Assembly: GCA_021613535.1 (NCBI GenBank)
Contig: CP075492.1
Location: forward strand, 3,162,001-3,226,000
Direction of reading: 5' to 3'
DNA length: 64,000 nucleotides
From: Adineta vaga
Lineage: Eukaryota > Animalia > Rotifera
In this document: positions 16,626-62,246 of the stretch, in pieces
Layout: every line of letters starts with the position of its first letter
How positions within the stretch are numbered: the stretch's first letter is position 1
Notes under the pieces: model-generated
The model's database searches: none
Seen by the model: only the letters and a program-made list of their open reading frames with translations
Told to the model about the DNA's origin: nothing
Translations under genes and position numbers: made by a program

Positions 16626-16627
16626 GT

Positions 16628-22635: not shown

Positions 22636-24320
22636 ATGAATAAGAAACATAAAAAATCTAATACAAAGGAAATTGTGAATACTGTTTCAATCGCAACGTG
22701 AATTTAACTAATCTTATTTTCATGCAACAATGATTACAATAATTTTCTTTTTTATCTAGAAATGATAATACCCTACCTATAACAACAACACAAGAACAAG
22801 AACGAGAAGAAGAAGAATATGATGAGAATGACGATCATGATAATGAGAACAATACAAATCCATCACATTCTCTTACAACAACAGGTAATTTATTGCAAAT
22901 ATTCAAAACTTCTCACGTAAATGAGCAAATACATTTATTGTTGTCCTAAAAAAACATAATATAATACTTGCTATGTATATTGACATAATATTTCTAAATA
23001 ATTCAGTTTGACTAAAGACAACCCAATACTACTTGAGGTAGATGTCATGTTGATAGATTTCTTTCTATCGTATTTCATTTATTTTTAGCAGTACAACCAA
23101 TTCTGATTAATATAAATGATATCACTACCGATATAAAATTCGTGTATGTCATTAATACAAATTTTTACAATTATAATGATAAAAATCAGTTCAGTTTGAT
23201 TCACAAATCATTCCTAATATTTTATCTAACTTTATATTCAATCTTTATTTTCAATTTCATTCAAATTTAGATGGAAAATTCATGGATTTGTCACTTGCAT
23301 TTATCCTAAACGAACATTTACAAATTCTCATGGTGTTGGTGAAATTTCAAACTGGGATATAACCGATGAATCAGGTTCAATTACATTGGTGGCATTTAAC
23401 TTAAATTCACATATAATGGCTGATAAATTGAAAATAAATCAAGTACATAATTAAGAAAGAATTTATCACCATAATCTTCTTTTTGTTAATAGGCATATGA
23501 ACTGTCAAATTTAATAATCAGAAGTGCAGTTGATATGTACAAAACATTACCACATCCATTTCAATTAACTTGTACAAATGCAACATGTGTTCGTGATATT
23601 CATCCACCATTTAATATTACACAAATCACATACAATTTCACACCATTGAATCAAATAAACACTCTTCCATTGAATACAATAATTGGTGAGATGTTTCAAT
23701 ATTATCACAGACATTATTCAATTATTCCAAATATAAGATAACACATTTTAATTGAACATAAATCGTCGACAATAAGAAACAAAAAAATTTCGAGCAGATC
23801 ACTAATCAATTTCCCTTTATGCATAAGAAATAAATAATACTAAATACTAGAATCTACATATTAATTAAAAATATCCCACAAAAAATCTATATGAATAATA
23901 TGATTTATAATAATAATTTTTATTTAGATGTTGAAGTACGAGTTCTGCGTGATTTTGGTGTAACAACTGGTACAAAAAATGATTCAGTATGGAGTCGGCG
24001 CGATATACATGTTGATCAAGATGCTTCTCATATTGGTATGACTTTATGGAATGAACAAGTAAAGTAAAATAAATTAATCTATTACTTGAATTAATAATTA
24101 TATAATCTCTTAGGCTCGATTCATAAAAAAGAGTATGATTCATCTTCGATTAAAATTTAAAAATATAAAAATATCTTGGTATGAAGGCATGTAATAAAAA
24201 AACAATTCATATTCTTCACAATATAATTATCGAATAAACGTTTTTATTTTAGGAACACGATTCTTAGTTACTCTACCAAACACACAAATGAAAGTATTTC
24301 GAAATAATTCGATAAAATAA
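22636..24320 (+). CDS. RPA70-like ssDNA-binding protein (DBD-A + DBD-B OB folds) with acidic N-terminus, multi-exon
   Basis: spliced WKIHGFVTCIYPKRTFTNSHGVGEISNWDITDESGSITLVAFN parallels RPA70 [72 protein letters not shown] parallels DBD-B; last intron GC-AG (24187-24252); mostly missed by the ORF track. Confidence 0.8.
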
Positions 24321-24931
24321 CAAAACGTTCTCTCAACAAACAAATCGATGTAAAAGAAATCGAAATCACATTTATTTTTTTATTTTATTTTCATCGATAT
24401 TTATCGTTTCAATGGGATTTGTTTTTCAATCTATAAATATTCAATCTGATTTTCGATTCAATTATTAATTTCGATTCTATTTTATGATAACAATAAAGAA
24501 ATAAGAAAAAACTTCTAAAGGATCTTCTGATAATAAACAAAGATAAAAAAATAAATTCAGCTCTTAATCATCAAGAGAGTTTCTCCATAAGCATGTGATA
24601 TATTGGTGTTGACACCCACATCCTCATACTGACACCGTTCGTTTATTCTGAACAAATCACGCAGACCAAATCGTCTCCTGAGAGAGATGAGATTGTATCT
24701 TCCATGAGCAGGATATATGATACCACTCATATAAATGTAGCAATATGTTCAAGATTCTCTTAGTTTTATAGGAAATTTCTTCGATTTGCAAGAAACAGAA
24801 AATAAATATGAGATTAGAAAATTTTACCACCTTTTTCTCATTGGTTACATCAAATATTTCAAAACGGACAATAGAATCATATCATTCTACATTCCAAAAT
24901 CAAACTTAAATTCGTTACAAAAACAATATCA

Positions 24932-27900
24932 ATGGAAAATAACAAAAACCAAGAGTCACTTAATAATTTAATATGGCAAAGAAATCTATCGAATGCCAGA
25001 AATATCAAAATAAATTTACAATCCATTATAGATGGTCCAATGAAACTATTGTATCAAATATTGAATCATTTTGAAAATCTGAATGGTACAGATCCTATTG
25101 GATTACTTTTAAGTTTATTTGTTTGTGTCGGGCATTTTTGTGGCGAATCAACAGTTAAAATAACAAATCATATATCGAAATTAAATGTTTTCCTTTTACT
25201 AATTGGTCCATCAGGTCATTTTTTATAAAGAAAACACTATAAAAAAATCACTTATACATATATAGGTAGTGGAAAGTCAAAAATAATATCGCCCATTAAA
25301 AAAGCAATAATTCGTGCTATTAAAGCCTTAGGAATTTCAAAACAAGATGCTGGAATCATGGATGATTTCACGAATGCTTCTCTTTCATCGAAATTATCTA
25401 AAACTAATGTTTTCATTCTCACAGATGAAGCTGAAAAACCACTGTTGTCATTGGGATTTTATTCACCATTATCAGAAGTTAGTGCTGCAGATCGTATTTC
25501 TGGATGTAAATTTTTTGGTACAATACCAACAACTAAAGATACAATGAGCTATCATTTGGAGATTAATTCACATTTATCTTTTGTTGGTGCAACTACAGGA
25601 CGATTATGGCATCGATTGATACATTTTTATGCACAAGGTTATCAAAGTGATGGATTTTCAGAAAGGTATTAACTTCTTCTTCATAACTAATCCACAAAGA
25701 TTCACATAATTGAAAGAGTATTCAGCAACTAAAGTTCATTATGAATATCATTGATAAGAAACCTCTAATGAAACATAACGACGATTGAAGAAAATTGAAT
25801 GTTGATTGGTTGATTAATTATCTTATAATTTTTTCCGCACATGTTGATACAAATCTTTCCATTATCGAATCCATAATTATTATACATATACATTAATCAG
25901 GAGATAGAACAAACTTTTATTAATAAGCAACTAATGCTATCATCAAAATTTACTCTATTTCTCTTTTGTAATCTGTTATTCAAGAAATACTTATAACATA
26001 TAATAATACATAAAATACATCATTTTTCATTTTAGATTTCTCCATTATGTTATGCCTAAGAAAAATGAGTTGAATTTTAATTTATCGCAATGCATTGAAT
26101 ATGAAGAAGTTGATGATGGTGATATTGGTGATGAATATGATGATGATATCAGTGATGATGAATATGACACTGAACAAAAACTAAGTTCAAATACGAATCT
26201 TCCAACTTTATGTCAAATTTTAATTATTTGCCAACTTCTTGGAAAACGTAAATTTATTTTAAGCAGAAATGGAACAAAAAAATTCTATGACAAAGTTCGA
26301 CAATATCAAGAACTTTCTCAAATTGATAAACCAGACGATGTCAATTATGGTTCTCGTATGGGAAAATCTGCTGAAATACTATGTAAACTAGTGGCTATAT
26401 GTCAAACACTTAAAATCTCTATGGATATTCTGAAGTAAATATAATGAACTAAAAATTTACTTATATCAATAATTCAACAATTAATTTTACGTTTTAATTC
26501 ATAGAACTCTTCAAGAACAAAAACAATTGATTTCTGGTGATTTAACTTTTAATTTTATTCGAAGTGTAACTCAAATTATTGAAACAAAATATAAGTCTAC
26601 AAACAATATTATGGAAATAGATTCATCTAGTTGTCGACTAGCAGTAACCATTCTTTGTAGCCATTTACTTAAAACATTATTTACTTTGTACAATACAGAA
26701 CCAATTACTGAACCTGACGAAAAATCCACAAATCTACAATCAATTTCTAGTAAAATTCCTTTTCCAAACATTTCTTTTATACTAATTGTTTATTAGTTCA
26801 TTCAAATATAAATACTATTCGTGAACGCATAATTCAATTTCCACAACTTTTCTTCTTGAAACGTGATTTAACTGGAAGTATGGGTGTACTTCGGCATTAT
26901 CCTTCTCAAATGGTCAATATCGTTCTTGATGAATGTATCTCTTATCAATTAATACGAAAAGGACGTATGAGTTTTTAACTATTCAAGCAAATATTTCTAT
27001 ATTCATATCAATATTTTTGTTAGCTTACATCACAACAACGTCTCGTGGAATTGTTCATATGAAATCTTTTCCATCAAATAATATTTTAAATAATCCATCA
27101 AAACTTGTTGCACTTGAACAAATACTTAATGAAAACAATTTGAATTTAACTAGCTACTCAAATATTCTTTGCCAATGTATTATAAAAGAAAAACAAATAC
27201 TTACATCAGCTGGGAAAGATATATTATTGTTACCTGAACACAATCTTTTATATCAACATTTAAAAGAAAAATATCCAGAACGCCAATTAAATGGTAAATT
27301 TTCATATACAACGATCATTTATTTCATTATAATCACTACGTCAATACAATGATCAAATCTATTTTTTGAAACATAAAATTCTATATTTTAATTAATTATT
27401 CTTACAACAAGTTTATAATTTTCAATTTTTTCTATTATAGATATAATTCCTTCATCTCAACCAATTGTTTGCACAAACATTATAAATGAAGAATTACCGA
27501 AATCTACAATAGATAACGCATCAAATATCCTCGACACTTCCGATTATGGTAAAACAATAAGAAATTCATAATGTGCATCATTGTTTTTTTTTCTATTGCA
27601 CAGTAACTAATTTATCAACACCAATTCTGTCATCTACAACAATTGATACAACATTAATAAACAACTTTTACAATAATACACCACCTCCATCAAATGACAG
27701 CTCTTCAGCACTGACATTAAATATTCCAGAAAGTAATTATTTATATTATTTTACATCTGATCATGACCAATATTGAACTCTAATTATTTAGAAAATTTCA
27801 TCACTAATCCACATCGAACACAATCAACAATCAATCAAAATTCAAATCAAAACAAAACGTTACCAATCACAGAACATGAACTCATCACCACAAATAATCA

Positions 27901-28651
27901 TACAATGCATTTTTCTACAAATCAAACTTTTAAATGCATAAAAACAATGATTCCATTACAACAATCACGTATATCATTTTCATAATATATAATACTATTT
28001 GAAAATATCTATCTAGCAACACAATCAGACAAGCAAAACAATGTCAAATATATCATTCCAACACATTCTGGTAAATTAATCAGCAAAAAATCTAAAATAA
28101 AGAGAATTTCATTTTTACTTTCAGTATTATCCTTCAACAATATAAATGATTCAATGCAAATATCCGCTGCTCAAACATCAGTATCAAATATTAATAATAT
28201 CTTCCAGTCATCATCTACTATGGCTCATACTATTCAACAAGTAAATGTATTTTAATTTTTGTTATGAGCTTATTTTTGCGAATCCATCAATAGTATTTCG
28301 TTCGATCGATAAAAAACAATTCCCTTGATATTTTTTACCAATTTTATCAATAAACAATTTTAATAAAAAAATTTCCGTTTTGATTTTGTTTTCATTAATA
28401 ACTACCAAAAACCAAAAATAAAAAGCATATGAATTATACGCATAATTCATCTTTTTTCACCATACTTGAAAATCACTAAATTACTTCTATATTTATTTAC
28501 TATTTAGAACAAATCTTTAACCATGTTAACTAATAAATCGAATACATCGTCAAATAATGCACGCATTGCATACGAAAATAAAACGAATACATCAAACACA
28601 TCACAAATAGTTGATTTGTTTGATAATAACACAAGCATAATTGAATCAAAA
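24932..28651 (+). CDS. DUF3987/YfjI-like AAA+ (helicase-type) P-loop ATPase with long Ser/Thr/Asn-rich region; 3'-truncated
   Basis: Walker A LLLIGPSG/SGKS split by intron 25215-25265; Walker B VFILTDE; sensor-1-like LSFVGATT; Arg-finger-like DGFSER/FL across the next intron; further exons to a donor at ~28652 with no acceptor after. Confidence 0.7.
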
Positions 28652-28760: not shown

Positions 28761-29860
28761 ATGGTTTTGCAACACGATGAATAAAAATTCTCGGAAACCG
28801 ATCCTCTTTTCGCTATAGATAGAACTGGATTCTTGAAAAATATAGGCACATATCATATTTGCTCTAAAAAATTAGATGTTGTACGATTTATTCTCTCCTA
28901 AAATTGTTCTGGATAGGATCTTAATAACGAATATCTTTGTGATTTCCAAATAGAATTCGAGTTTATTGATACATGAGAATCTCCATACTGGTTCGAGGAA
29001 GTCTCTCAGATATGAAGCATCTAGACTTCTCATTTCTCATCTGTTTGTAAGGTTATTATTATGTGGCATTCAATCGGAAAAAAGGATTTAATGCGTATAG
29101 TATGTGATATAAAAACGTGTTACTTGATGTAGAGATGAGAGGAAACGATAGACTTTCGCCTCGCCTATTTTTGCGATCAATTTGATCGAGATGACAACTA
29201 TTCTTTTCGAAACAACGAACAAAAAAAGTTAAAACTAACGAACTGGTCAAGATACTATAGCAGAAGTCGATGTCCAGATTGGCGATTGTTAGGTTTCTCG
29301 TTATTAATTTGACGAGCTTGAAGAATTCGAAATAAAGACATATTAATCTCGGTTTCTCGAACTTCCAACATATCGTCACAGAGTTCCCTATTATTGTTAT
29401 CCGCCAGACAGAACAGATAATGTTACGTAATAAAAAACCTGTTTCGTACGCATACCACTAGTCTAACGCTATAGTCATGTGCCTCATCGATAGTTCGAAC
29501 ACAAAAATCAATTTGTCACTTTTCATTTTTCATTTTTTCTTTGTAATAATAAATATAAAATATCTCTGAGTTTACGTTCAAATACAGTTTCGATCGGTTG
29601 GATATAGAGATCCTGTTTGTAATCAAAACTATCGTGTTATGCAAGCGCGTAACGATGACGAAACTTATAGCGCACACATTTTTTGTGTATACTATTCACA
29701 GAACAATACGAAAACGAACAACGTGACAATGCAAATTTTACCGTACAAATTAAGGATAAAGTGGAAAAAAATGAGTCACTCGACATGACCAAGCAAAATG
29801 ATACATAATTATGAGTATAAATTAGATTACAATATTCTAGAGATTATTTATTTGACATTA

Positions 29861-30616
29861 ATGGGAAAACTCGATGGAAAAATTGCTTTGGTTACAGGTG
29901 GTTCAGAAGGTATTGGTTTAGCAACTGCTGCACAGTTTGTGATTGAAGGTGCTTATGTTTTTATTACTGGACGTCGTAAAGAAGTACTTGATGAAGCAGT
30001 GAAAAAAATTGGTAGTGAAAATGTAAGTGCAATTCAAGCAGATTCAACAAAATTAGATCAAATTGATAATGTAATCAACATTATTGAGAAACAAAAAGGA
30101 AAACTCGATATTCTCTTTGTAAATGCTGGAACAAGTACATCTTTACCACTGGGTTCAATCACAGAAGATCATTATAATTTTATATTTGATCTTAATGTCA
30201 AAGGAGTATTGTTTATTGTACAAAAAGCATTAGGAATTCTTTCTATCGGCAGTTCAATTATCATAAACGGATCAGGTCATAGTATCAAAGGTTTTCCAAC
30301 TTATAGTGTTTATGCCGCATCAAAAGCTGCTGTTCGTTCATTTGCTCGTTGTTGGTCTGTAGATCTAAAGGATCGAAAAATTCGAGTAAATGTACTTAGT
30401 CCTGGTGCAACTGAAACACCACTAACTAGAAAAGTTGTAGGTGGTTCTGAAGAAGATTGGCAAGAAGCGAAAAAAAAATATTCGGATCTTACCGTCTTAG
30501 GTCGTTTTGGTCAACCTGATGAAATTGCAAAACCTGTTGTATTTCTGGCATCAGATGATAGTTCATATATCACCGGAATTGAACTTTTTGTTGATGGTGG
30601 TCTTACACAAATATAA
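29861..30616 (+). CDS. classical short-chain dehydrogenase/reductase, bacterial-type
   Basis: MGKLDGKIALVTGGSEGIG, VNAG, YAASK, RVNVLSPG, ITGIELFVDGG; no introns. Confidence 0.92.
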   Translation: MGKLDGKIALVTGGSEGIGLATAAQFVIEGAYVFITGRRKEVLDEAVKKIGSENVSAIQADSTKLDQIDNVINIIEKQKGKLDILFVNAGTSTSLPLGSITEDHYNFIFDLNVKGVLFIVQKALGILSIGSSIIINGSGHSIKGFPTYSVYAASKAAVRSFARCWSVDLKDRKIRVNVLSPGATETPLTRKVVGGSEEDWQEAKKKYSDLTVLGRFGQPDEIAKPVVFLASDDSSYITGIELFVDGGLTQI

Positions 30617-32377: not shown

Positions 32378-33584
32378 TTCGTTTCTTTTTTGCTGTCGAC
32401 AATTGGTTTGGTTAAACGTCTACTTACGTATTTGTGATTTATATTTACTAACGACCATACTTACATATCCTTCACTATTTGCTTTGACTGATTTGCTCGT
32501 ATGGTATTCACTCGTGTCATAGTCCATTTAAATTATCACTAATCTTTTTAGACAAAAACAATACATGCTGTCATAGAATGACAAAGCATTACAACGCATT
32601 TCAAAATGTTAGATTTACTAAACTTGATGATATTTGATATGCGTTGTTGATTAGTTATTAGCCTAGAGAGTAGTGTTCTTCACGGTCAATACAAAAAAAT
32701 AAGACATATTCATCTGTTTTTTTGACGATGTTCGGCGGATATTTTGTTGTCCGTATATAATAAATTGAACATAAGGGTGAGTGTATATGTCCCTGTTGAT
32801 ATAAAGAGAACAACCACATCCACACTTCACACCCTCAAGATGATTATTATCAATTTGAAGCGAAAATTCGAAGTGAAATGCCATTTACATGTGTTTGGAT
32901 TAGTGATCTTATTGAAATGCCAGAGAAATATGATGATTTCTTTGGACCAAGGTTCAAATTAACTTAACATTCGAATATCCTTTTTTTATAAAGTCACTTT
33001 AGAGAAAAAAAATAAAAAGGAGAGTTTAAGAGTGTGGGTGTAGGTGTTAGACAGATGTAATACTCGCAGCCACCCTCACATTTTTTAGAAGAAACAATCG
33101 AAAATTGATTTTTTCAACCCTCAAAAAAAATAATTCTAACACAATGACATTGCAGTGTGTATCTAAATTGATAAAGTTATATTTTTCTGACATCTGTTTT
33201 ATGGCTTGATAATGAAATTATAAATGCCCATAGAAACAGAAACATAGAATTTACCTTTCATTATTGCAATATGTTACTAATTATTTTTAAAAAAAGCAAA
33301 AATATCGAAAGAATTTCATTTATTTAGATCAACGACTAAATTAATCTGGATTTTCTTCTCATATATTTGTCAAATTTATTTCATTCGATCGATTTACAAT
33401 GTTAAGTCGAAATTTTGAGATGTAATAACATACGAAATGTGCTGTATGTTATTAATGCATTAGGCGAATGTCAAAGTTATGAATTAGATTCAATTAGTTC
33501 AATCTAATAATTTTCAAAACATAAGATTTTATTTTTATTTAATAATCGAACATTGAAACAACAACAAACTACATCAATAATTAT

Positions 33585-40766: not shown

Positions 40767-41037
40767 CCCAGACAGATAGAATCGATAAAAAAACGACGTT
40801 CTTATGTTCGTTTTTTCCAACAGAACGTATATTTACTACGTTAAAAAAATATACTTTTGTACCCATATAAACGATGTTTTTTTTCTTTCAGACAGAAAAT
40901 AGCCGAAAACGACGTTTATACGGGTACAAAGGTGTATTTTTTAAAGTGGTAAATATGTTTTGTTGAAGAAAACCAACATAAGAATGTCTTTTTTTCTCGC
41001 GAAGCGTGTTTTTTTCTATCGATTTTGTTTGCCTGAG
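40767..41037. mobile_element. fold-back MITE flanked by TA
   Basis: TA|cccagacagatagaatcgata ... tatcgattttgtttgcctgag|TA; almost the whole ~270 bp is an imperfect palindrome (tttgtacccatataaacg / cgtttatacgggtacaaa). Confidence 0.8.
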
Positions 41038-45757: not shown

Positions 45758-45812
45758 CTTGAGGGTGTGGGTGTGGGTACTCCTATCTTCTATCACTCCA
45801 CACCTACACCCA
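45758..45812. repeat. telomere-repeat hairpin, clear copy
   Basis: cttgagggtgtgggtgtggg-tactcctatcttctatcact-ccacacctacaccca. Confidence 0.8.
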
Positions 45813-47105
45813 TATGACAAAAACCCTTTCAAATATAATTGGGTCATAAGAAGTAAAGTCACATAGCAGTGAGAATATGAATAATCGATGAATCGGACAT
45901 ATACATATATTGACAATCTCATGTTTATTTTATTTTGCATCAATGAAAACAGGAAAATATTATCTATTCATCGAGGGATTGCAAAAATACATAAAGTTCT
46001 ATTAATCATATGGTGTGTAGATGTCCACTGGTTCTTTTCGAATAGTGTAATGATCATCATTCTTTAAAACCAAGTTTCATAAAGCATTTCGAGCTTTCAT
46101 CATTAAAATGATAATGAACTAGGTAAGAAAATGAAAGTATTATATTGCAGTAGAGTAATGACATTTCACATGCTTCTACAAAAGGTACTTACCATCTTTT
46201 GTATCCTTGAATAGACATAGCCAACAGAAATATGTATCACATGTGCATTGCGTTGCATTACAATCTTCGTCCTTCCAACAGGGTTGTTTACATTTTGGGT
46301 TTGGACACAATTTAATGGGTAGGTTACCTATAGAAAGACTTATTTTATATTCTGCTTATCAAAAAAGATATTTCATCGTTTTAAAATAAGAATTCCAGCA
46401 GTTGACGTCGGTAAGTTTATCTCGAAACCTGATTGAAAAATTACTAAATCCAGACAAAATATCGTACGAAACGAATGGTTTCCGAGACTAGAATATCGTG
46501 ACTGTATTCAACGATTGGTTATGTATTCATTTTCTATAGGAAAGAATGGGTGGGTGTGGGTGAAGGTGTCTCTTCCCTATTCACATCCACACCCACCCTC
46601 AACATCACCAATATAGAGAACTGGCATTAATCAAAACCTAATTCACAGTTTTAATAAGTTTCGTTAGATTACGTACTAATTGTGATCTTACTAGACAATT
46701 TGTTACTTCGCTCGTCTCGTTTCTAGCTTTCTTATCTCTTATATGTTATGTACATAGAAATGAATAAGCATGCTTGTTTACATACACTGCATGCATGATA
46801 GTTGTCTCTTTATGCAAACAGACACCAACCTTTTTTTCTTGTCTTTTCTTTTCTATAATTCTTTTCGCCGAACGAATATGTAAGTATGTGTTTTGTATAA
46901 GAACGATACGATTATTGAAAGGAAGAAACAAACAAAAGCGACGTGTCATTAGTGTAAGTATATCTTGTATAAAAAATCGTTACATATAGTTGCTTATTCT
47001 CTTTTAAATCATTTTAGGTACCATTTGGAGCAGATTAGTCTATGGTTGGGGTACCCGATACAATCAATTCATCGATGAAAAATCACGGAATTATTTTAAA
47101 AGACT

Positions 47106-48025: not shown

Positions 48026-51000
48026 TTAACATAATTTCATGACAATATTTGTATTTCCATATGCATAGTTTCCAATAATAACATCTGTAACATTATCATG
48101 ATTGATATCTTTTGATGATAATGCAAACGGGCGAGCATTAAAACCAATTGGTAATATAAATTGATTAGAAAAGCTTCCATTACCATAACCAAAGAAAAAA
48201 CCAACATTATTACTTCCATAATTAGCCACAGCTATGTCCAATAGTGTATCATTATTATAATCAGCTATATTAACTGATGATGGTTGAGATTTCAGACCCG
48301 TTGAATAAATAATTTGATTATAAAATGTTCCATTAGTTTTTCCAATAAAAATACCAATAGTATCACTTCCACTATTTGAAATAACAATATCTAATTGATT
48401 GTCATTATTCAAGTCAGCAATTGCAATTGAAGATGGATGAGAATCATTACCTGTTAAATAAATATTCTCACGTATAAATGTTCCATATCCCGATCCAAAC
48501 AGAATCATTAGATTATTAGTTCCAGAATTAGTTACTGCAACATCCAATTGCTTATTATTGTCAAAATCTCCCGTAGCAACAAACATTGGACGAGAATTTA
48601 ATCCAGTTGAATAAGACGGTAAACTTATAAAACTCTTACCAGAATATCCAAGAAATATGCTGATATCATCATTATCAGAATTACATACTGCCATATCCAG
48701 TCGACTATTGTTATTAAAATCAGCAAAGAGAACACCTGTTGGACGTGCATTATAACCAGTTGAATAAGTTATTTGACTGAAGAAAGTACGATTAACATAA
48801 CCAAGAAAAAAACCAATTTCACTTTTTTGTGAATTGACAACAGCAATGTCATCTATACCGTCATGATTCAGATCGATAACAGTCAACGAAGATGTTTGAG
48901 AATCTTGACCAGTTGACAAAATAATTTGATCTTCAAAACTTCCATTTCCATATCCGAAAAAGATGCCAATACTACTAAGTGCACTTTTAGCAATAACAAT
49001 ATCAATATAACCGTCTTTATCAAAATCCCCAGTATCAACAGAAGTTGATACCGAACCGGCACCAGTTGATAAAATTTTTTGTCCAGAAAAACTTCCATCA
49101 CCATTTCCAAACATTATATTTATAACATCACCTCGTTCATAAACGACGGCGACATCTGATCGATTATCATTATCAAAATCTGCAATAACAGCAGAACTTA
49201 ATCCATCGCGTGCACTTATTGGATAATCAATTGTGACAGAAAATTCACCATTACCAATTCCAAGAAAAATATTTATTGTTCCAGTTTCAAAATTGGCTAC
49301 AACAAGGTCTGGTCGAGAATCATCATTCAAATAACCGACGGTAACTTCTCTTGGCCAACCATTACTCTGAGTATTATAAACTATTGTATGGGAAATCGTA
49401 CGATTTGCACCCATTATTAAAATATATAGGAGAAAATGAGCATTATCAATTAAAGCTATGTCTGCTATATTGTCATCATTAAAATCACCAGCATCAACGG
49501 AAGTAGGTAAACATTTATCATCAGGAGAATATATTATCTGATTAGAAAATGTTCCATCACCATTTCCAAAAAAAATTCTAATGGTATGATCTCCATTATT
49601 AGCAGTTACTATATCAAGTCGATTGTCGTTATCGAAATCTCCTATGGCAAACTTAAATGGATTAGAACCTGCACCCGTAGAATAAGGGGTTCGTGATCCA
49701 AAATATCCATAATCATATTGAATTAGTATATTGATGTTATCATTACCATAATTGGCAATAACAATATCAGTCAGATGATCGTTATTGTAATCACCAGTAT
49801 CAATTGAATATGGATTTAAACCATCGGAAATTGAATAACTGTTTTGTTTTCCAAAACTTCCATTTCCATATCCATAAAAAATACCGAAAGAATTTACACC
49901 TGAATTAACAACGGCAATATCTCGATGATTGTCATTATTAAAATCGTGAACACTCACAGCGACAGGAGAAGAAATTGAACCAGTTGAATATTGATCTTGT
50001 ACTGGAAATTCTCCTTGACCATTTCCTAAATAGATTCCAATATTATTTGTAATATAATTAGCAACGACGAAGTCCATTTGATGATCTTCATTAAAATCAT
50101 CGACAAAAATAGAACGTGGACCAGAAGATGATCCAGTTGAAACTGGAGTTCCCTGCATAAAATTTGCATTTGCAAATCCAAGAAAAACACCGAAATTCTT
50201 ATCACCTGAATTAATAACGATAACATCGAGTAGAGTGTCATGATTGAAATCACCAATAGCAGCCGATGTTGGACGTGAATTTTTACTACTTGAATAAATT
50301 ACTGCATTCGAAAAACTGCCATTACCATAACCGAGAAAAAGGGCTATACCTCGACGTTCTTGATGATCAAAAAGAATATCGACTAAACTGTCATTATTAA
50401 AATCACCGACAATTACAAATGATGGATGCGATTCATAACCTGTTGTGTAAATCTTTTGCGGTAGAAAAGTTCCGTTTCCATAACCAAATAGAATGCCTAT
50501 GTTACTATTCCAAGGATTACTAACAACAAGATCAATTTGACCATCACTGTTAAAATCACTGCTAGCAACGGAACTTGTTAATGGATAATAACCTGTTGAA
50601 TAACTTCTTTCATTGACGAAGTGTCCAGCTCCATCTCCATAAAGTATACCTACAGAACCGTAAGGATAGGGGTCAGATTTGTATGTAACTGCTACATCGG
50701 GTCGACCATCGTTATTAAAATCAGTAACAGTAAATCCAGAGGCCGAATATCTAATTGTAGACTGAAATACATCTGTAAAACTTCCATTTCCATATCCAAG
50801 GAAAGCACAAATAACGCTAGAATAATCACACATAAAAGAAATATCGAGATAAGTATCATTATTTAAATCGCAAATAATAATCGATTGTAATTCATCGTAA
50901 AAATCATAATTCAATGTTGTTAAAAATGTGAAAGTTCCAAAACTATTTCCACGATGAATTTCTATTTTGGTTTCATCATAGTTTTGATAAAAGATGACAA

Positions 51001-52660
51001 TATCATCAAATCCATCTTTATCGAAGTCACCTACACCAGTAACAATAGACCACGGCTCATCAATAACTAAATATATCGATTGATTTGAAAACGTTCCATC
51101 ACCATTTCCCATAAAAACTCCCACGCTACCACTATCAATATCAACTACTACAATATCAAGTTTACTATCATTATTGAAATGACCCATATCTACTGAGCTT
51201 GGTTGTGATTCTGAACCAGTTGAATAAATTTTTTGATCAGAAAATGTTGCATTAGAATAAGCCAGTAAAATAAATATATTATTCGTTGCATAATTAGCTA
51301 CAGCAATATCTAATCGTTGATCATTATTAAAATCTGCTCCAACAATAGAATATGGTTGAGAATTTGAACCAGTTGAAAATATAACCTGATCTTTGAATAA
51401 TCCATTTCCAAGACCAAGAAAAACGCCAACATTATTAGTACCACTATTAGAAACAACAATATCAAGTTGATCATCATGATTAAAATCATCAATAATAATT
51501 GAAATTGGTTTAGAATTATTTCCTGTTGAATATGTTCTTTGTTCTGTAAATGTTCCCTTCGCATTTCCAAAGAAAATACAAATATTATTCAGAGCTAAAT
51601 TAACAATAACAATATCCAAATAATTATCTTGATTAAAATCTGCTACATCAATATCATTTGGATAAGATCCAATTCCAGTGGATATAATTATTCGATCTGT
51701 AAATGTTCCATTTCCATTTCCAAAATAGAATTCAATATTATGCAGACCAGAATTAACAACAGCTATATCAAGAGTATTATCATTATTAAAATCTTTAATA
51801 GCAATTGATAATGGTATTGAATCATAAGTCGAAGATAATTGAATTTGATTTTGAAGAAGACCATTATCATATCCAAAGAGAATTCCAACAATATTTGTTC
51901 CATAATTAGTAACAACAATATCAATATATGAATCATTATTTAAATCATTCAAAGCAACTCTTAAAGGACGAGAAGATCCAACTGAATAGACTATTTGATC
52001 TTGAAATGTTCCATTATGATTACCAATAAGAATGCCAATTGTATGAGAACCAAAATTTGATACAACTATATCCAAATAGCCATCTTTATTTAAATCAGCG
52101 ACGGCAATGGATGAGGGTTGGGAACCTATACCAGTTGAATATGTCATTTGAGTTGTAAATGTTCCATTACCCATTCCAAAAAAGATTCCAATATTATTCG
52201 TACCCGAATTAGCTACAGCAATATCCATTTGTTTATCACGATTAAAATCATATGTAACAATACATTTGGGATAAGAATTACTACTGATAAATTGATAATT
52301 GATTGTTTTTATAATCACTTCACATGTTATTTCTAAAGAATATTTAAATCTTTTCTCTCCAATCTATGTTACGAATAAAAAATATTCCTACTTGATTTAT
52401 ACGATATGGTGAAATACCAACCAAAATTGCGACTATCATTGATAGAATTGTAAATAAACTAAATACACCCACACCCTTCCAAGTACGATATTTAGATCTA
52501 AAATCAAAGCGTGTTTTTTTTGTATGAAGATTAAAATAGGATAAACATACCGAAATTGATGAGATTGAGTGTTATTATCTGTATCCATATGAACATCGTT
52601 TACATTCGATAAATTCTCTTCAGAATGTAATTGCTCAATGGTGACAACTGTCTTCTCCAT
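48026..52660 (-). CDS. type II membrane protein with large FG-GAP/VCBS repeat ectodomain (possible 1-nt frameshift in exon 2)
   Basis: 1430-aa exon of tandem D(F/L)NxDxxxDIxVxN...FLGxGNGxF repeats; exon 1 MEKTVV..HQFR (from 52660), exon 2 SKYRTWKGVGVFSLFTILSMIVAILV (TM); acceptor at ~52333. Confidence 0.85.
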
Positions 52661-54704
52661 GATATACACAAATGCTGTTTGAGAAAAATCAAAAAGAAAG
52701 AAAACTTTTTACAAGAATATAAACGTAGTGTATTGGAATAGAAAAACATCCAAATAATTTTTATTTCGAATACGGATTTGTTAAGCTATGAGAATCATAA
52801 GGCGATCTATAGATAACTGGAGGTATACTTACGATGTAAATTAATACTGGGATGTATTGAAGTTATTTTGTGTGTTAATAGTCAATTTAGATACTTGGTT
52901 TTTTCCAAGTAATGTTTGTTTATATGTGAAATAACAAAGCTTAATACTTTATACACACAATTATATGATTTATATGAATGATTTTTTTTCGCACATGTTT
53001 TCATCATAACGCTGTGCAATACAGTTATGTCTTTCTTTTTTTTGAATTTATGTTAGCAAGAAAAGATATTACTTACCGTTACCTTTTTCTTGTTTTCTTT
53101 TCGTTCTTATGTATATATGATATATGTTTGAGGGTGGGTGTGGGTGCTGATATTCCTTCTTACCCATATTTACAATAGAATGAAATTTTCGTTCGAATAT
53201 ACATAAAAGCAACTCTATAGTAGCTTCATCGACTAGAAATTATGCCAAAATAGATGTCTCATATTTCCATATGCTTAATCTTTATATAGATACGATGAAC
53301 AGCTGTTATTTCTTGAAGTTCTCGAGGAACGTTTTATGACTATAAATCTATCGAAATATCCTAAATAATAGTCGCGTTTGGGAATGATTTTGCCATGAGC
53401 ATAGTTGAAAACCATTATATAAAAAGTTGTTTCAATTGATAATCGAGAATACGATGTAAAGAATATGGATGAATTGCAAAATTATTGTATCGTTTAGAGT
53501 AAAAACTGGATGAAAAACAAAAATTTTCGATTTTGAACTCGATCAGTGATGTTTTTAGTTGTACTACATGAGAGGAGAAAAAGTATCAAGTTTATCCATT
53601 ACCGTATTTAGTAAAGCTCTGATATACGAGAAACATTGGAAAATCTACTGAATGATTGTACCGCTGTTGGATCGAAAAATGGATTAAATATTAGATATTC
53701 GCAGAATGTGTTGAAAATACTTCAGTTTATATAGTCCAGTGTAATGATGCACGATCATACAAACTCTCTAAGTGCACTATTCTTTATATAAAATCTCACG
53801 TGTTTCATTGAATGTGACAACTATAGATATTTAGATTTTATTCGCCACTTATAAGCTTTCATTTAAAGCGTCCCCCGACAGATTTTGAATACTTTGTTAA
53901 ATTGTTTAGGCGTTTGTAAATCTCGATCGTGTGACACTATATCATGCTTCAGACATTACATTAGTATTCGAAGAAAAACGTATCATAAACTGTGATGATA
54001 GAACGAACCAGTTTAAGATTCGTCATGTTTACATACTGCGTACTGTAAATTCCAACAATAGTGTGGAAATTCAAATGACAGGACATATGGGCCAGTTATA
54101 GTTCATTTTCTGTCCATAGGTGGTAGCAGAAACTACTTATTGCATCCTAGTATATGCAGTATCTCGGAATAGGATAATGATAAATTCCTGATTTTTTTTG
54201 TGTGATAGTGAGGATCAACTAGAGCCCCAAACTCAGAACTGTTCATAAAGATTGATCAAGAGGAATTGCGGAGTTATTCATCGTATACATCGTTCATAGT
54301 CATGCTTCTGAATAAATAATAAATGTTTTATACAAGATTATTCATTGTGTATGTTTGTTGTTTAAATATAGTAAATAGTTGTTCTATCTGTGGCATTGAT
54401 TCAATGTACTTTTGACGGTAGTGAACGTCAAAGTCGTGTGTGTTTTTTGCTTTCTGTGCGGTGAGGCAAAAAGAGAAAGAAAAAAAAGAATAGAAAAAAG
54501 AACGTAAAAATACAATCACTTCTTTATCTTGGACTGGTAAGAATTGAGAGTGGCAAAGACATTTTTATTATATAAAATAATTCAAAGCAGCAACTAAAAC
54601 AAACATATTTCACTCCTCCATCAGTAACGATCTCATTACGTCAAGTAATTCTCTATCAAATAAAATGAATGAATAGTTTCTTTTTTTTAGTATATTACAC
54701 AATA

Positions 54705-55532
54705 ATGAGTGCACCACCTCGATACATCATTCGTAATGCTCGAAATGAAAGAAATTTTGATGACATGAATCATGTACAGCCCAAAGAAATAAGAGTATCA
54801 TCGATAAGACCACGTTCGTATAATGACGAATATCAATATCAAGAACCAAGATATAATAATAGACAACCAATTCCCCCACCACCGTGAATATTAACTTTAG
54901 ATGATGATTCTTATATACTATATTATATTCTTTTTTTATTTTCAAGTAAATCTCGTAGTTGGTGTTCGAAAGCATGTGTAATTGGACTTCTTATTGGTTT
55001 GACAATTGGTATACTGATTGCTGCTGCAGTTGCAATTCCACTTGGTCTCATCAAACGACCAACTCCTGCATTTGGTAAGCAAAAATTCTTGGTATACAAA
55101 GAATATTCTTTATTTATTTTAGTTCGAGGTGAAGTTTCTTCTACACCAAATTGGATTGGAACATTTCAAATGGATAGTTCATGTGATACAAGTACATGTT
55201 GTTGTTTTACAAATCAAATTTTCCTAATTCAGACAAGTTCGAATTTATTACAATTAAATGGAAGTCTTTCTGGTCGATGTATTGGTTCTACAAGTTTGGT
55301 GTCTTATGCGCTATCAATGCCAACAAACTATGCAGTAGCATTTACATGGTTTGGACAAGCAATTCGTGTAATTCTAAGTCAAGATAATTCTTATCTAGCA
55401 CTTGTGGATAATAATGTTGGATATTGTAGTGGTACTGCATTAAGAACATCTTATAGTAATAGTAGAATTAATAGTGTCAATTTACCTTTAATGATATTTA
55501 TGTTTTTGATTATTATCGGAATAATTATATAA
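54705..55532 (+). CDS. membrane protein with C-D-x3-CCC domain, 3 exons
   Basis: cytoplasmic N-terminus, TM (VIGLLIGLTIGILIAAAVAIPL), introns ~54884-54946 and 55075-55122, WIGTF..CDTSTCCC..GRC..FGQAIRVILSQDNS..YC, hydrophobic C-terminus. Confidence 0.7.
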
Positions 55533-57191
55533 TCAAATGAAACAGAACTTTTGTCCTTAGACATTCAGTGTATTTGCACGAAGTATCGCGATATTTTTTA
55601 TTAATATACTGTGACTTTTATACCAAAACAACTTTTCATTAGGTGGTAATAAAAAAATTGATTCATATTTACATATTTAACTAACATAACGTCAGAAATG
55701 GACCAGATAAGTCATACCTTGAAATAATATGAAATTTATCATTTTCAAACGATAGTGATGTCTCACGATCTAAGGACGTGATTTGACGTTGTACATATAC
55801 AGAAGGTTAAGATTGATACTGTTATCGTTTATTTATTTCATTGACATCTATGATGACTTTTTAAAAGAGGATATAATTAGCGTAAAATGATGTATCGATC
55901 GATGTTGACCTTTCTTTTATTCTGTCCTTTCCTTTTCTAAATCATATGCATATTTAGATAGACATGACAGAAACGGAGAGAATTAACTAGTGTGAGCAAT
56001 CTTGCTATTCACCAATGTGTCCTTATAATTTAGACCGAAACAATTGTTAATTAAGTCAATATATCTGATTACATACCGTAGGCAAAATGGATCATATTTT
56101 TACTAATACTTCATCTAGTTCAAATGCTGTGTAAAAACTGGGATTTGCGTTTGATTCAAGTCCTTTTTTTTAAAGGTTCCATAATGACGCATAGTCTGCC
56201 TATAGAAGCATACTAGAATATCGTGTGTGAACCGTTTATTTTATGAATTCCATTTTTCCATGTACAGGAGAAATGCAATAAAGTAAACGCACAAAACAGA
56301 TAAAGAAATAATTTCCAATAATATTTATTCATACTGATTTTTCAGTAATTAAATTACTTTTCAAGAAAATGATTTTGCTACAAAATCAGATTTCCTATTA
56401 TATGCCAATATCCTTTATTAAATCAAATTTATTCCTATACGAATGAGGGTGGGGATATATTTTCCTCTTTATACAACTATTCATGCATTCTCTTTTATCC
56501 ATGGTTTCAAAGACATTCGTCTAGCATTTTTCTTTCACTGCTTTATTTACTTCATGTTTTAAAAAATCTTACATTTAATTTGCTCTGCCTTCAAAAAGTT
56601 CTTTTTCTCTTATTTACTATTCCATTTGGCAGTTAGTTCATTTCATATGATTATCGAAATGTAATTTGATGCATTGTCCTTTCTGTAGGACAATTACAAC
56701 TTAGTTTTATCATTATCAGATCAGATCAGATCAAAAACTATAAGGAAACTGAACATTGCTTTGTCATTGCCAATGAACATGAATAGAAGATGAGTTTTCA
56801 GTAAAAACGATTGTTTGAACATAACACTATCATTTTACAATGGAAAAACTATTTCAATAAATTTAAAACTGAATTCTTTAGTGAATATTACTTCTATAAA
56901 AAGAAACACATGATAAATGGAACATAAAACTATCATCGAATCTAGCAAAAAAACTTACTGTTAAGTTAAATATAACTATATTTATAGAATATTGTTCAAA
57001 TACTTACAGAATAATATTTCAAGAGTGACTAAAACTGAAAACAAGATATACATGCATCTAAATGCTTTTATAATTTATTTTCTCAAGTCTTTCATATAAT
57101 TAATATGAATACAGTGTGTGCAATTTTGTATATTATATGAATTTATGATAAGTTTATTGTTATGTCTATGATATTTAAGACAAAATTTAAT

Positions 57192-57543
57192 TTATTGCCC
57201 AAAAGCGATGCACAGATTGTCGATTATAAATTGAGTTCTATTTTGTGTTCGATCACTATTCATGCATAACTCCATGTCCTACTACAAGTGTTATTGTGTC
57301 AGTATTCTCATAGAAACCACAATTTATCCATAAGGAAGATCTAAATATTGTCTTAAAAGTTCCTCCAGATGTAATCTGACCAGACCTGTAAGCAGTTAGT
57401 TTAATATCGATAGAACCATACCAAGTGCTATATAAATTCATAGAATCAAAAGAAAAACGAGTTCCATTTGCATTATGCATCGCAAAATTGCCACTGAGAG
57501 CAGCACTTCGATAACCCCTCATCGGCTGGAGTTGTTGAGACAT
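57192..57543 (-). pseudogene. 5'-truncated fragment of a beta-rich extracellular domain
   Basis: GYRSAALSG..FSFDSMNLYSTW..IKLTAYRSG..FIIDNLCI with a frameshift near 57260; begins directly at a telomere-repeat hairpin. Confidence 0.45.
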
Positions 57544-57733
57544 CTTGGGATTGGGTGTGCGGTGAGTGTAGGGTCCACAACCTCACTCACATATGTCACA
57601 CTCACACCCAGAAACACATACCAAAACCGAAACACCCACACATCACACTGACACCTATCCCGCAAAAATCAACAAAATAAGTGAGATACATTTATGTTCG
57701 TGATTAATATATATATTGATCTCCCATTGTTCA

Positions 57734-59629
57734 TTAACAAAAAGCTAGTGATTGTTTCCCCGGTCGAAAGTCTGTAACGTTAAAATCAAGACGCTCATCG
57801 TTCTCATAATAATAGTATTCATAATCGTCAATATCATAATCGTCAGTATAATAACCGTCACTATTATAAATACATTCATCAAAATCAATGTCAGAATCAG
57901 AAGTATCATCGTAGGTGTCACAGTTTCCTTTGGACGAATATATATTTGCTTCCAAGGCCTGATTCTGCAACCATCTTTTCGTTTGAATAGGCATATGCGT
58001 ATTGAATGAAAACACTTTCATCTTTGAATATTTTACTAATTCGTTTATTACCAATAGTAAATGTTTCGGTCCATCACAGTAACATTTTAGTCGTTTAATA
58101 TTTGAAAACCGTTTGCAGACTTTCATTATTTCATAAGCATCATAGAAGTAATCACCTAAAACATCTAATTCTGTTATATTTTTGCTGATATATTCACATA
58201 CATCCTGATTGCTGAAAAGTGAAAGTAAAGTATCCTTTCGGATTTTCAACGATGATATGTTTGACGCTTCTTTCATTATTAATAATAATACTAGTGGAGA
58301 TTCGATATCGAGTAAGCACGACGAGATATCAAGTTGCTTTAAGTTATATAAGTTAACGATCATCTTCAGTGACTTTATGTGTTTTGTTTCTAGAGGAGGA
58401 TATGTATCAATACTGCGCTCATAGTCATTATCTAGTGTTAATGAATTAACAGATGAAAAATAATGTTCGCAAGTAGTTGTTATACTCTGCAAAGATAATG
58501 TTAAGATGGTAACTTTGTCAAATGTGCCTAAATCAGTATTCGATACATCACAATATCTTTCGGTATATGATATAAGAGTATATTCATTTGATGGATAAGG
58601 TATAGTATAAATGCATGCACAGCTCTTCGAAAGTGCACATTCAGTATACCAATGGTTTTGATACCAGAAATCATTCTGGAAGTGTTCAAATCTTTTATAA
58701 ATGTCGTTGTCTTTACGAAGATATGTCATGCCAAATTTGAATTGGAAGTTAGTTAATCGGGGTAATACAGATTCAATCAATCGTTGCCAATCTTGAGGAT
58801 TAAGAATTTCCAAATCATTTTCAACAGAGATTGTTAAACTACTCAGATTAGGTGTTTTTCTTAATATCGTTTCAAGCGAATTAAAGCTACCAAAGTAAAC
58901 CGGAGAACCACGAACAATCAGTTGTTTTAAATGAGTAGCAGTGTGTTCATTCGTCGAATTAAGTTCGTCGATTTTCCACCAATCACATCCCTTTAAGTAA
59001 TTTATACTAAGATATTGTAGTTTGGGAAGATATTTAAAAAAAAGACACACTCGCGACACCGAACAACTATGAGAAATTGTTAAATTAATAACTGACGTAA
59101 ATGGATCAAGAACCGCGAAATTCAGTTCTAGCACTGGCACCGATAATGATTGTATATTAGATCTGGACAGTGCTGTCACGATGTTATCGATTTCCTCCGC
59201 CCATTTCTTAAAGTAAAAGTCCTATAAATTAAATAATAACAGTAAAGTACGTACCATATCCTTCCGTGCATAGCCTTCGTAGTCTACAGCCAAACATAAT
59301 GATCGAAGATGAAGAAATTGATCGAGCGAAAAACGTGACAAAAATGTAGATATTTGGTCATAAACAGTTTCATGGGACAAGTGTAAAGAGCGGATTCGGT
59401 TTTTAATTCCGGGATTTGATAATATCTGTTCACAAAATTGATCAAAAGTTGATTTTTGTACATGTCGAAAATTCAACCGCAGAGGAATACTTCGAATAAG
59501 ATTGTAATACCGGTTATTTAGAAAATCGAATGCATAGAATATATCTGTTCCATTGAGATATTTGAAGCATTCCAGGAGTATCTCGTTTGGTAGGAGCTCA
59601 AATTTCATAACGTCCTGCATATCACCCAT
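57734..59629 (-). CDS. F-box/LRR-like protein with acidic tail; one short intron ending at 59222
   Basis: KFELLPNEILLECFKYL..DIFYAF..LNNRY F-box start; WQRLIESVLPRLTNFQF, FQNDFW, IYTIPY; the two ORFs share a frame across the intron. Confidence 0.85.
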
Positions 59630-59973
59630 GATGAGAAAAAAGGTTTACTTTCAAAGTCTGCTATCTTATCTTTCTATAAAAAAAAGATAGTAGTTCAGTA
59701 TATAATGTTTCTTCATGACTTATATTCGGATCGCAGATAGAGAAAGCATGCCTCACTGAGGTCAAACAGAGACCCCGAATATTCGAGAACGTCCGTTTGA
59801 TAATCGAAACTGGAACTACGTCAAATGAAGTAGTCCTGAGATTAAAGACAGGATAATTGGGATGAGGACTTAATTGTAACTTTTATCTACATAACAAATG
59901 TTAAGTAAATAGCATGTGGGTGTAAGCGTGGGTACAATTATTACTTTCATTTCATATTCTGACCCACACCCAC

Positions 59974-60695
59974 GGTGAAAGACACAACCAAAATAGCGAC
60001 TATCATTGATAGAATTGTAAATAAACTAAATACGCCGATGAATCTCCAAGTGCGATATTTTGAGCTAAAATCAAAGTGTTTTTTTGTATGAAGATTAAAA
60101 TAAGATAAACATACCGAAATTGATGTGATTGAGTGTTATTATCTGTATCCATATGAACATCGTTTACATTCGATAAATTCTCTTCAGAATGTAATTACTC
60201 AATGGTGACAACTGTCTTCTCCATGATATATACAAATGCTGTTTGAGAAAAATCAAAAAGAGAGAAAACTTTTTACAAGAATATATACGCATTGTATTGG
60301 AATAGAAAAAAAATCTAAATAATCTTTATTCCGAATACAGATTTGTTAAACTATGAGAATTATAAGGCGATCTATAGATAACTGGAGGCATACTTACGAT
60401 GTAAATTAATACTGGAATGTACTGAAGTTGTTTTGTGTGTTAATAGTCAATTTAGCTACTTGGTTTTTTCCAAGTAATGTTTGTTTATATGTGAAATAAT
60501 AAAGCTTGATATTTTATACACACAATTATATGATTTATATCAATGATTTTTTCTCGCACATGTTTTCATCATAACGCTGTGCAATACAGTTATGTCTTTC
60601 TTTTTTTTTAATTTATGTTAGCAGGAAAAGATATTACTTACCGTTACCTTTTTTTGTTTTCCTTTCGTTCTTATGTATATATGGTATATTTTTCA
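59974..60695. repeat. duplicate of ~52408-53127 (upstream region + exons 1-2 of the FG-GAP gene), pseudogenised
   Basis: near-identical sequence; in-frame TAA in exon 1; bounded on both sides by telomere-repeat hairpins (59916-59973, 60696-60752). Confidence 0.92.
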
Positions 60696-60752
60696 GTGTG
60701 GGTGTGGGTCTGGGTGTTAGTGTTACATCTATCTAACACCCACACCCTCTCT
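60696..60752. repeat. telomere-repeat hairpin with TTACATCTATCTAA spacer
   Basis: gtgtgggtgtggg..gggtgttagtg-ttacatctatctaa-cacccacaccctc; same spacer at ~4735 and reversed at ~33047. Confidence 0.8.
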
Positions 60753-61118
60753 TTGGGGACGTTCCAAAAAAGGAACACTTTGCATCAATTTGATCAGTAT
60801 AAAACTGGATTATGAGCTTAGTTTTATTGATAAAGTAAAATATACAACGATGAGGACAAAATATTGATTGTTTACAAAACGACTAGTCGACGAATAATAC
60901 GTAATTCAAAGTTTTATGCTTTCATAGAATAATTCATTTCGTCAGTGGGTATTTTAACATGATGCGAATGAAAGAAAAAACAATGCAAATGTTGTTCTTG
61001 CTTGTTGCTACGCTACCAACATGAATATTGACTCATGTTTTGCTTTTTCTCCTCTGTTAAATTCGGTTGTAAAGAGAACAGAATATAAGAAAAGTGAAAA
61101 TTACATTGAAATATAACG

Positions 61119-62246
61119 ATGCTCGGGTTATTAACCAGATCTAGTACAAGTATTGATCCAAACAGCAGTGTTATATGGGTTGATTCTGATCCAAATATTC
61201 GTCAAAGTACAGGATTACTTGAGGCTCAAAATTGGCGTGTAGCATGTTTTAATGAAACAGCCGATGCACTAAATGCTCTCCGTCAGAATCGTTTAATACC
61301 AGATAAGATCAATTGTATTATTACAAGTATGATGGAGCGTGGCGGTAGAAGAGAACGTGGACTTTTAAATGGATTACAGATGTTAGACGAAATGAAAACT
61401 ATTTGGAAGGAAGCATGTAGTTACTGTCCACTTATAGCTATCATTACTCTGACAGCAGATGTACAAGAATGTCAGGAACATGGTGCTACTGTTATTGTGC
61501 ATGGTGATCGCAGAAAAATGCTGCTTCAAGTGATCGATCTTCTGAACAAAAGTCCAAATAGTGAACATCGAGAGAAATGGCGAGAACCATCTCTGTTACC
61601 ATGTTTACAGTTAAGAGAAATAGCCAAAGCATATCTCGATACATTGAATCTTGATAGGAAATACTTTGATACATTCTGTGATCATTGTTTCTGTAAGACT
61701 TGTTCATCAAAACGAATATGGGAAAGATGTAATGAAAAATATGCATTACCTATTGGTTACTATCGTTTTGGTTTGTTACTTCGAAATGAATTTAATGAAA
61801 GACGTGCTGATGTGCAAAATTGGCCAGTAGCATATCATGGAACTCGAAGACAGAATATTGATTCGATTCTTAGACATCGTCGGATTATGTTTCCTGGTGA
61901 TCGACTAGATGACGGTACCGTTCTACCTGTGCGACTTGGTCAATGTCATGCTCTTGGGTCACCTGTCATTTATGTTTCACCTACTATTCTTTATTCTCAA
62001 CACGATGTTTATACACCTCCCGAACACTTTCATCATGGTTCACCTTTCAATTCAACAAAGTATAAGATCAAGACAGTCCTACAATGTCGAGTAAAACCTG
62101 AATCTTTTCGAAAATGTCGAGAAACACTCGGCTTTAACAATATAATCATTGATCAAGATTTTAATAACAATGAAGTCGAATGGGTGGTATCCGATAAGAC
62201 AGCAGTTGTTCCATATGGTCTTCTCATTGGCATTTTTCCTGAATAA
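61119..62246 (+). CDS. receiver(CheY)-like domain fused to NEURL4-type ADP-ribosyltransferase domain
   Basis: intronless 375 aa; N-terminal VIWVDSDP..V.CF....DAL..L..CIITS.....NGLQML..PLIAIIT...GA; C-terminal CFC..C..YALP.GY.RF, WPVAYHGT, IYVSP...YS, LQCRVKP.SF, EVEW, PYGLLI. Confidence 0.8.
   Translation: MLGLLTRSSTSIDPNSSVIWVDSDPNIRQSTGLLEAQNWRVACFNETADALNALRQNRLIPDKINCIITSMMERGGRRERGLLNGLQMLDEMKTIWKEACSYCPLIAIITLTADVQECQEHGATVIVHGDRRKMLLQVIDLLNKSPNSEHREKWREPSLLPCLQLREIAKAYLDTLNLDRKYFDTFCDHCFCKTCSSKRIWERCNEKYALPIGYYRFGLLLRNEFNERRADVQNWPVAYHGTRRQNIDSILRHRRIMFPGDRLDDGTVLPVRLGQCHALGSPVIYVSPTILYSQHDVYTPPEHFHHGSPFNSTKYKIKTVLQCRVKPESFRKCRETLGFNNIIIDQDFNNNEVEWVVSDKTAVVPYGLLIGIFPE

Follow-up and report, generated by a model that had tools for sequence, protein, structure and literature searches.

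The window analyzed here is a 64,000-nucleotide (nt) stretch of the bdelloid rotifer Adineta vaga (GenBank assembly GCA_021613535.1, contig CP075492.1, positions 3,162,001 to 3,226,000 of the forward strand). It contains a gene for an FG-GAP repeat protein and, at a distance of 7.5 kb, a broken copy of the 5′ end of this gene that is bordered by short runs of telomere repeat. The gene is encoded on the minus strand, and its main exon (exon 5; 48026-52332; Pfam FG-GAP_3, E 5e-167) forms part of a long open reading frame (ORF; 48026-52363) that encodes the FG-GAP repeat protein, for which 120 homologs were listed, those with a name belonging to Adineta and Rotaria. The donor segment (52408-53145, minus strand) carries the preceding exons at 53131-53077 (start inferred), 53011-52833, 52674-52551, and 52497-52392. 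Exons 2-5 are backed by the spliced sequence record X11/16, including the 16 letters that are missing from the copy.

The copy occupies 59974-60709 on the minus strand and comprises exon 1, exons 2-3, 91 nt of exon 4, and a terminal run of telomere repeat. All three introns are present with intact GT-AG borders. Comparison by blastn and by pairwise alignment gave 93% identity to the donor over 740 columns (689 matches, 45 mismatches, and 6 gap columns; lengths of 736 and 738 bp, respectively), which corresponds to a divergence of ~6% (45 of 734 aligned bases). Exon 3 differs at 3 of 124 columns. Exon 4, the second coding exon, is broken off in the copy 16 nt short of the splice donor, and the reading frame meets a stop at codon 10 in addition to the truncation. 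The copy is dead.

The bdelloid telomere repeat is given as TGTGGG in the available portions of PMC8494291 and PMC7943196, and TGAGGG (TCACCC on the other strand) is a variant in that of PMC6431247. Short runs of this repeat are termed arms: a G arm is G-rich on the plus strand, a C arm on the minus strand, and a G arm followed after a spacer by a C arm is termed a joint. At the left end of the copy, the minus strand of the broken exon 4 passes base-exactly into the C arm of joint 1 (59962-59973, minus), a 12-nt perfect (TGTGGG)n run that is absent at the donor position. Beyond it lie a 28-nt spacer that is nearly G-free on the plus strand (59934-59961) and a degenerate G arm (59915-59933, plus) which faces the neighboring minus-strand gene. 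The far arm is decayed though the near arm is perfect, and the flanks of joint 1 derive from different genes. Spacer 1 agrees with perfect repeat at 8-9 of 28 positions, a chance-level fit, and no local template for it was found, the longest match elsewhere in the window being only 12 nt. As the copy is only ~6% diverged and the spacer fits the repeat no better than chance, spacer 1 cannot be repeat that was added at this event and decayed afterward; it is either older than the duplication or not derived from the repeat.

A putative RNA record of the left neighboring gene (X10/14) spans 59255-59974, and therefore all of joint 1, and continues for two unmatched letters; its end may mark an allele with a different flank or the end of a transcript. 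X10 was taken as RNA by guess and X11 is untyped, and both contain GT-AG joints. A 52332-59974 joint occurs in X10 and X11, which in X11 represents the intact parent transcript with the 16 donor letters in between. The repeat at 59973, G-rich on the strand of the exon, supplies a GT splice-donor-like site at the broken end. Splicing from this GT into exon 5, a possible reading of the joint in X10, would be out of phase.

At the right end, joint 2 consists of a 14-nt perfect G arm (60696-60709, plus), a spacer (60710-60735), and a 12-nt perfect C arm (60736-60747, minus). An earlier sequence-only reading had described a 720-bp segment bracketed exactly by two motifs, starting directly after 59973 and ending at donor position 53127 and copy position 60696. 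The start was borne out, as 59974 pairs with donor position 52408. The proposed right end proved too short: homology crosses the G arm to 53145 and 60709, giving 738 and 736 bp. Pairwise alignment finds homology continuing through the motif at the right end, an outcome that the sequence-only reading had itself named as counting against it, and stopping at the motif at the left. The broken exon does read into the repeat as had been claimed, but it is exon 4, not exon 2. The G arm noted at the matching right end of the donor (53128) was found at 53132-53146 (plus), where it closes the donor block and is accompanied by no more than a weak partner arm near 53160.

Spacer 2 belongs to a multi-copy family. 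Its 16-mer core also is found at 4735 and 33044 with unrelated flanks, which makes three matches compared with 0.29 expected; 1 of 100 shuffles reached three, for a pattern that was itself taken from these same sites. Depth over spacer 2 is 115-188 compared with 25-37 nearby in DNA run X1. In each of two DNA runs, 8-10 records leave the joint 2 family at 60747 and at 60749, and 4-5 enter at 60706. A search of viral contigs with the spacer 2 pattern gave no match. The region 60749-60900 combines high depth with parallel loose ends at 60839, showing that the DNA to the right of joint 2 also is multi-copy. The simplest reading of the right junction is a crossover within 4-12 nt of repeat between the donor arm and a joint of this family, for which the 14-nt G arm is the likely site. 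Recombination at the motif, one of two routes offered in the sequence-only reading, fits this end, where donor and copy have an arm in common.

The donor itself bears a further mark. A 12-nt perfect telomere repeat (52465-52476, minus) lies inside donor exon 4 as an 11-for-11 swap relative to the copy, with 8 differences over 11 nt and 2 nt in register with the repeat, on the far side only. Across exons 3-4, record X11/16 follows the copy and not the donor. Donor exon 4 as assembled is one base shorter than that of the copy and is out of phase with the main exon, whereas phase arithmetic places an exon of the copy's length in phase with it. The membrane helix end in bdelloid homologs also resembles that of the copy. 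On these three grounds (phase, the homologs' helix end, and record X11/16) the copy retains the older state of exon 4, and the donor as assembled is damaged as well. A one-base loss near ~52417, ~50 nt from the swap, shifts the donor frame, and other isolates appear to have the copy-like form of exon 4.

Arms are abundant throughout the window. Clusters with at most 2 mismatches to an 11-mer numbered 27, whereas 40 dinucleotide shuffles averaged 1.9, and there were 10 perfect runs of at least 12 nt, the longest of 20 nt, against 0.003 12-mers expected. Six pairs within 70 nt have the order G-then-C and none the order C-then-G, and no pair arose in any of the 40 shuffles; three further pairs with a weaker partner were seen by eye. 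The blocks between joints measure 0.2-7 kb, and in paired arms the G-rich strand is directed outward from the block, as in a tiny linear chromosome. These structures had been taken for hairpins, a description that did not hold. Only the arms can pair and the middles are not stems: the median folding energy was -0.1 kcal/mol for 38 spacers from rotifer-like loci compared with -3.9 for 60 GC-rich controls. A structured RNA was considered and rejected on the same pairing pattern and on an Rfam scan of the window at gathering score, which gave no match, hammerheads included, although divergent hammerheads may have escaped it. What had looked like folded hairpins are joints that connect blocks of DNA.

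The joint pattern also was found at ≥117 loci (at least) in metagenomes. Fifty of these with a GC content ≤0.425, minus 10 that looked different from the others on visual inspection and were removed (L008, L016, L018, L020, L025, L053, L075, L077, L097, and L107), make up a rotifer-like set of 40. The spacers fall into several unrelated types. The joint of locus L039 matches those of L074 and L106 over 66-68 nt at 89-93% identity with no flank in common. Loci L014, L042, L078, L092, and L095 share a recurring spacer, rich in pyrimidines, in which TGTGGG and TGAGGG units are intermixed.

The proposed link between motif and rearrangement stood up in four places: the copy, a second duplication, a piece of an HSP70 gene, and the donor exon swap all coincide with arms. 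Three of the four ends of the copy/donor pair lie within arms, as do both right ends of the second duplication. The latter (12330-13532 and 16627-17871) involves a seven-transmembrane-like gene at 91.5% identity, and a C arm ends both copies. One of these arms (13521-13547, minus; arm scan and Pfam) is joined to a 5′-truncated HSP70 piece (13521-13975), which can be aligned to a solved HSP70 of 640 residues from residue 429 onward, the first aligned position being 13538 of the window, within the arm. The arm letters there read TPIPT, which we take to be close to the HSP70 stretch expected at that point, and a natural repeat-like stretch in HSP70 may have served as microhomology. Arms likewise abut start-less internal coding pieces of an NHL protein (L010) and of a mucin C8 domain (L048). 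Pfam hits were obtained in 4 of 63 scanned fragments, namely HSP70, NHL, mucin C8, and IBR; the IBR-domain fragment (E 2.1e-6) occupies a block of ~740 nt between two joints (45763-45811 and 46548-46600) in the region 45763-46600.

We favor, with a probability of roughly 55%, an explanation in which an intron-keeping DNA copy was patched in during break repair by reuse of head-to-head joints that already existed. Observed directly are the copy with both of its ends, arm polarity, the right arm that donor and copy have in common, the left arm that the donor lacks, and the multi-copy spacers; the enzyme involved, the order of events, and the state of the site before insertion are inferred. On the right, pairing would have been between two G arms, the donor's and that of a multi-copy joint, over 4-12 nt of repeat microhomology. 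On the left, exon 4 would have been broken and its end attached to the C arm of an older joint, as a blunt join or once one or two fresh repeats had been added and annealed. More broadly, the joints themselves may first have been made as seams when telomere-seeded ends fused, and would since have acted as adapters, in that a repeat at its tip would allow any end to pair with any arm. Use as adapters would explain why the outer repeats are perfect, the middles old, and the flanks swapped. Reuse rather than fresh construction is made likely by the chance-level fit of spacer 1 next to a copy only 6% diverged, and by spacers that recur with unrelated flanks. A tentative and less likely extension is a plug-in form of repair, whereby broken pieces of the animal's own or foreign DNA would gain one to three telomere repeats and dock on reusable adapters, and arms with TCA ends would provide incoming genes with a transcription start.

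Several observations weigh against the reuse of joints. The left break has no base in register with the repeat; in the available portion of PMC2246262, such a base is present at ~75-80% of informative mammalian loci and missing from about a quarter. Just inside the right arm, copy and donor differ four times in 14 nt (P ~0.008 at 6% divergence), and the right arm may have been capped anew at the same place rather than inherited. No record among those listed bridges either junction by 31 nt per side, and the target site was not seen as an empty allele. The metagenome comparison carries its own reservations. The rotifer origin of those loci is mostly assumed, with a protein link to the window in only 2 of 40 (L003 and L010), and the split into C-free and G-free spacers, which is significant in rotifer-like loci (79 vs. 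129), recurs in GC-rich controls (261 vs. 303) and thus is not specific. Two counts of arms relative to genes, given below, tell in the same direction.

Some of these points suit a fully de novo origin, which is an unlikely account. The ends of the fragment and of the host break would have been capped by telomerase or by an Athena-type reverse transcriptase and then fused, with spacers as filler or copied from RNA as in telomerase RNA (TERC)-derived interstitial telomeric sequences (ITS). Polarity is correct at both joints, and at the left end this agrees with the earlier proposal that repeats were added to a broken 3′ end. Perfect repeats of 12 and 14 nt adjoin the copy, divergence is higher beside the right arm, the exon swap resembles a fresh addition, and recurring spacers could be RNA-templated, judging from excerpts of PMC2246262 and PMC7215372. 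Against fresh capping, an arm is present in the donor too at the corresponding right-hand position, the left break is out of register, just two repeats lie there, and the rest of joint 1 looks older, with its far arm decayed beside a perfect near arm; moreover, the spacers form several unrelated types, not one RNA-derived sequence. Rather doubtful is the possibility that arms are selected promoter or gene-border elements followed by TCA, and that breakpoints were drawn to them by open DNA or microhomology with no telomere enzyme. The sites presumably would be those of a KLF-like or Rap1-like factor, with TCA as what we take to be an initiator. TCA follows 23 of 79 arms compared with 16 of 245 in the background, and an arm faces the start within 600 nt in 8 of 21 genes with ends set by hand, one being the HSP70 piece; these are the two counts that also tell against the reuse of joints. 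The inferred exon 1 of the donor begins at an arm, and pyrimidine-rich spacer words recur across samples. Conversely, 13 of the 21 genes are without a start-facing arm within 600 nt, and in 5 an arm faces the 3′ end, 7-125 nt past the stop. Flank orientation is flat in 44 metagenome loci with a GC content ≤0.40 (7 vs. 5 flanks; longest ORF 16 vs. 21). Putative RNA records cross the joints at 59915-59973 and 57547-57643, and arms also lie at truncated domains and inside an exon, where a promoter makes no sense, so that the exon-4 swap favors a seam. TCA also can be explained by the TGAGGG variant in the accessible part of PMC6431247. A promoter role is weaker than the seam reading. A core promoter with the start codon right after the arm was dropped: AAGATG follows several arms and often is no gene start, and the orientation tests were flat.

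Two further explanations are much less probable. The joints might be very small mobile elements whose inverted ends resemble telomere repeat, or the copy might have been moved by Penelope-type enzymes; either is improbable, even though whole units recur with unrelated flanks and Penelope-mediated copying of intron-containing genes has been published for A. vaga (PMC3846280, in part). No target-site duplication, pseudo-long terminal repeat (pLTR), or flanking direct repeat was found around the copy. The flanks of joint 1 stem from different genes, which is not insertion into one continuous site, and the Rfam scan gave no hammerhead. The least probable is that the junctions reflect misassembly or a chimeric consensus. 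In its favor, besides the lack of bridging records among those listed, an indel close to the shared start sets the window donor apart from two DNA runs, and no run contains more than 0.70 of the sampled words. Set against this, the copies differ evenly by 6-7%, arms of 12 nt are too short to mis-join, and depth is continuous over both copy junctions in two DNA runs. Donor-side records in two studies end at 52438, ~30 nt into the shared segment, which, as a weak hint, matches to within 1-2 nt the graph fork expected at the left end of the copy.

Joint reuse at this locus resembles several known systems without coinciding with any. As far as excerpts of PMC2246262 and PMC7215372 go, mammalian short ITS at double-strand breaks, including TERC-ITS, likewise are short runs of host telomere repeat at a seam that are absent ancestrally and come with additional bases or minor deletions, a pattern with which the exon-4 swap agrees well. 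Host repeat lies at an internal site here too (12- and 14-nt TGTGGG runs at the copy ends). It is absent from the counterpart at the left end relative to the donor and at the exon-4 swap relative to the copy, but not at the right end, and bases in register at the broken 3′ end number zero. In those excerpts most mammalian examples consist of one tract within a site that has closed again, and head-to-head arrangements are listed as rare complex events. Here, in contrast, arms of 2-3 repeats form G-then-C pairs every few kb, unrelated blocks are joined, and spacers are common to different loci.

Fusion-type head-to-head telomere junctions, such as human 2q13, show G-then-C polarity in long tracts from two whole chromosome ends. 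That polarity is found here as well (6 vs. 0), but arms are ≤20 nt, at least six pairs lie within 64 kb, and they bound pieces of gene size or smaller, not chromosomes. Unlike a miniature inverted-repeat transposable element (MITE), for which one continuous site and a target-site duplication are expected, joints 1 and 2 have flanks from different loci. Athena/Terminon units, in the accessible parts of PMC6431247 and PMC3846280, are similar in that truncated ends bear short repeat caps, host genes become trapped between units, and (ACACCC)n or (TCACCC)n stretches base-pair to G-rich ends as a joining step. They differ in that the arrays are published there as head-to-tail, and beside the joints here no reverse transcriptase ORF was seen; neither an Rfam hammerhead in the window nor a pLTR with target-site duplication at the copy was found. 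Bdelloid neotelomeres and interspersed repeats have been reported at breakpoints in regions rich in repeat-protein, foreign-looking, and broken genes (PMC13564844, PMC8494291, PMC2861651). The available text of these sources concerns repeats at deletion ends or repeat density, among them telomere repeats and Athena pieces at A. vaga deletion breakpoints (PMC13564844) and microhomology deletions (PMC2861651), and not paired internal joints, arm-bounded blocks, or reuse. The accessible part of PMC8885841 has nothing on the joint motif. The literature searched, which left out most subscription papers, gave no description of paired short joints or their reuse in bdelloids. New here are the dating of a seam and evidence that old joints are more likely to have been reused than new caps to have been made every time.

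The surroundings of the copy are of mixed character. The left neighbor (57734-59644, minus) gave no Pfam hit and by eye is F-box/leucine-rich repeat-like, the F-box label being our assumption. The right neighbor (61119-62246, plus) also gave no Pfam hit; its C-terminus presumably is NEURL4-like, and joints at 60736 and 62272 bound it. In metagenome locus L003 a joint (82-145) lies ~250 nt past a homolog of this gene, paralleling the joint at 62272. A short block of ~200 nt is enclosed by paired joints at 32775-33075. Single-ORF, foreign-looking genes encode a GTPase/DUF697 protein (17883-18998), with an arm 7 nt beyond its stop, and a short-chain dehydrogenase (29789-30616). The low-GC region 19973-28300 holds, by eye, integrase-like, single-strand-binding-like, and primase-like fragments, possibly of a decayed large transposon. 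MITE-like features are a 154-nt inverted repeat pair of 92% identity (2347-2911) and a 217-nt imperfect palindrome (40783-40999), and locus L024 is transposase-like by eye only. The fragments at 57259-57549 (homologs for 0 of 158 candidates) and at 32836 (no Pfam hit) were not counted as truncated genes.

It has long been an open question by what means bdelloids, which lack meiosis, shuffle and multiply their genes and import others. With donor and copy close together, the parts that were kept, cut, and added at this locus can be identified at single-base level and given an approximate date. If joints are reused, the breakpoints of young duplications and of foreign genes would be expected at the edges of arms, and empty alleles would already have joints. 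If pieces dock on adapters by the plug-in route, the variable regions of these genomes would be strings of capped blocks resembling mini-chromosomes.
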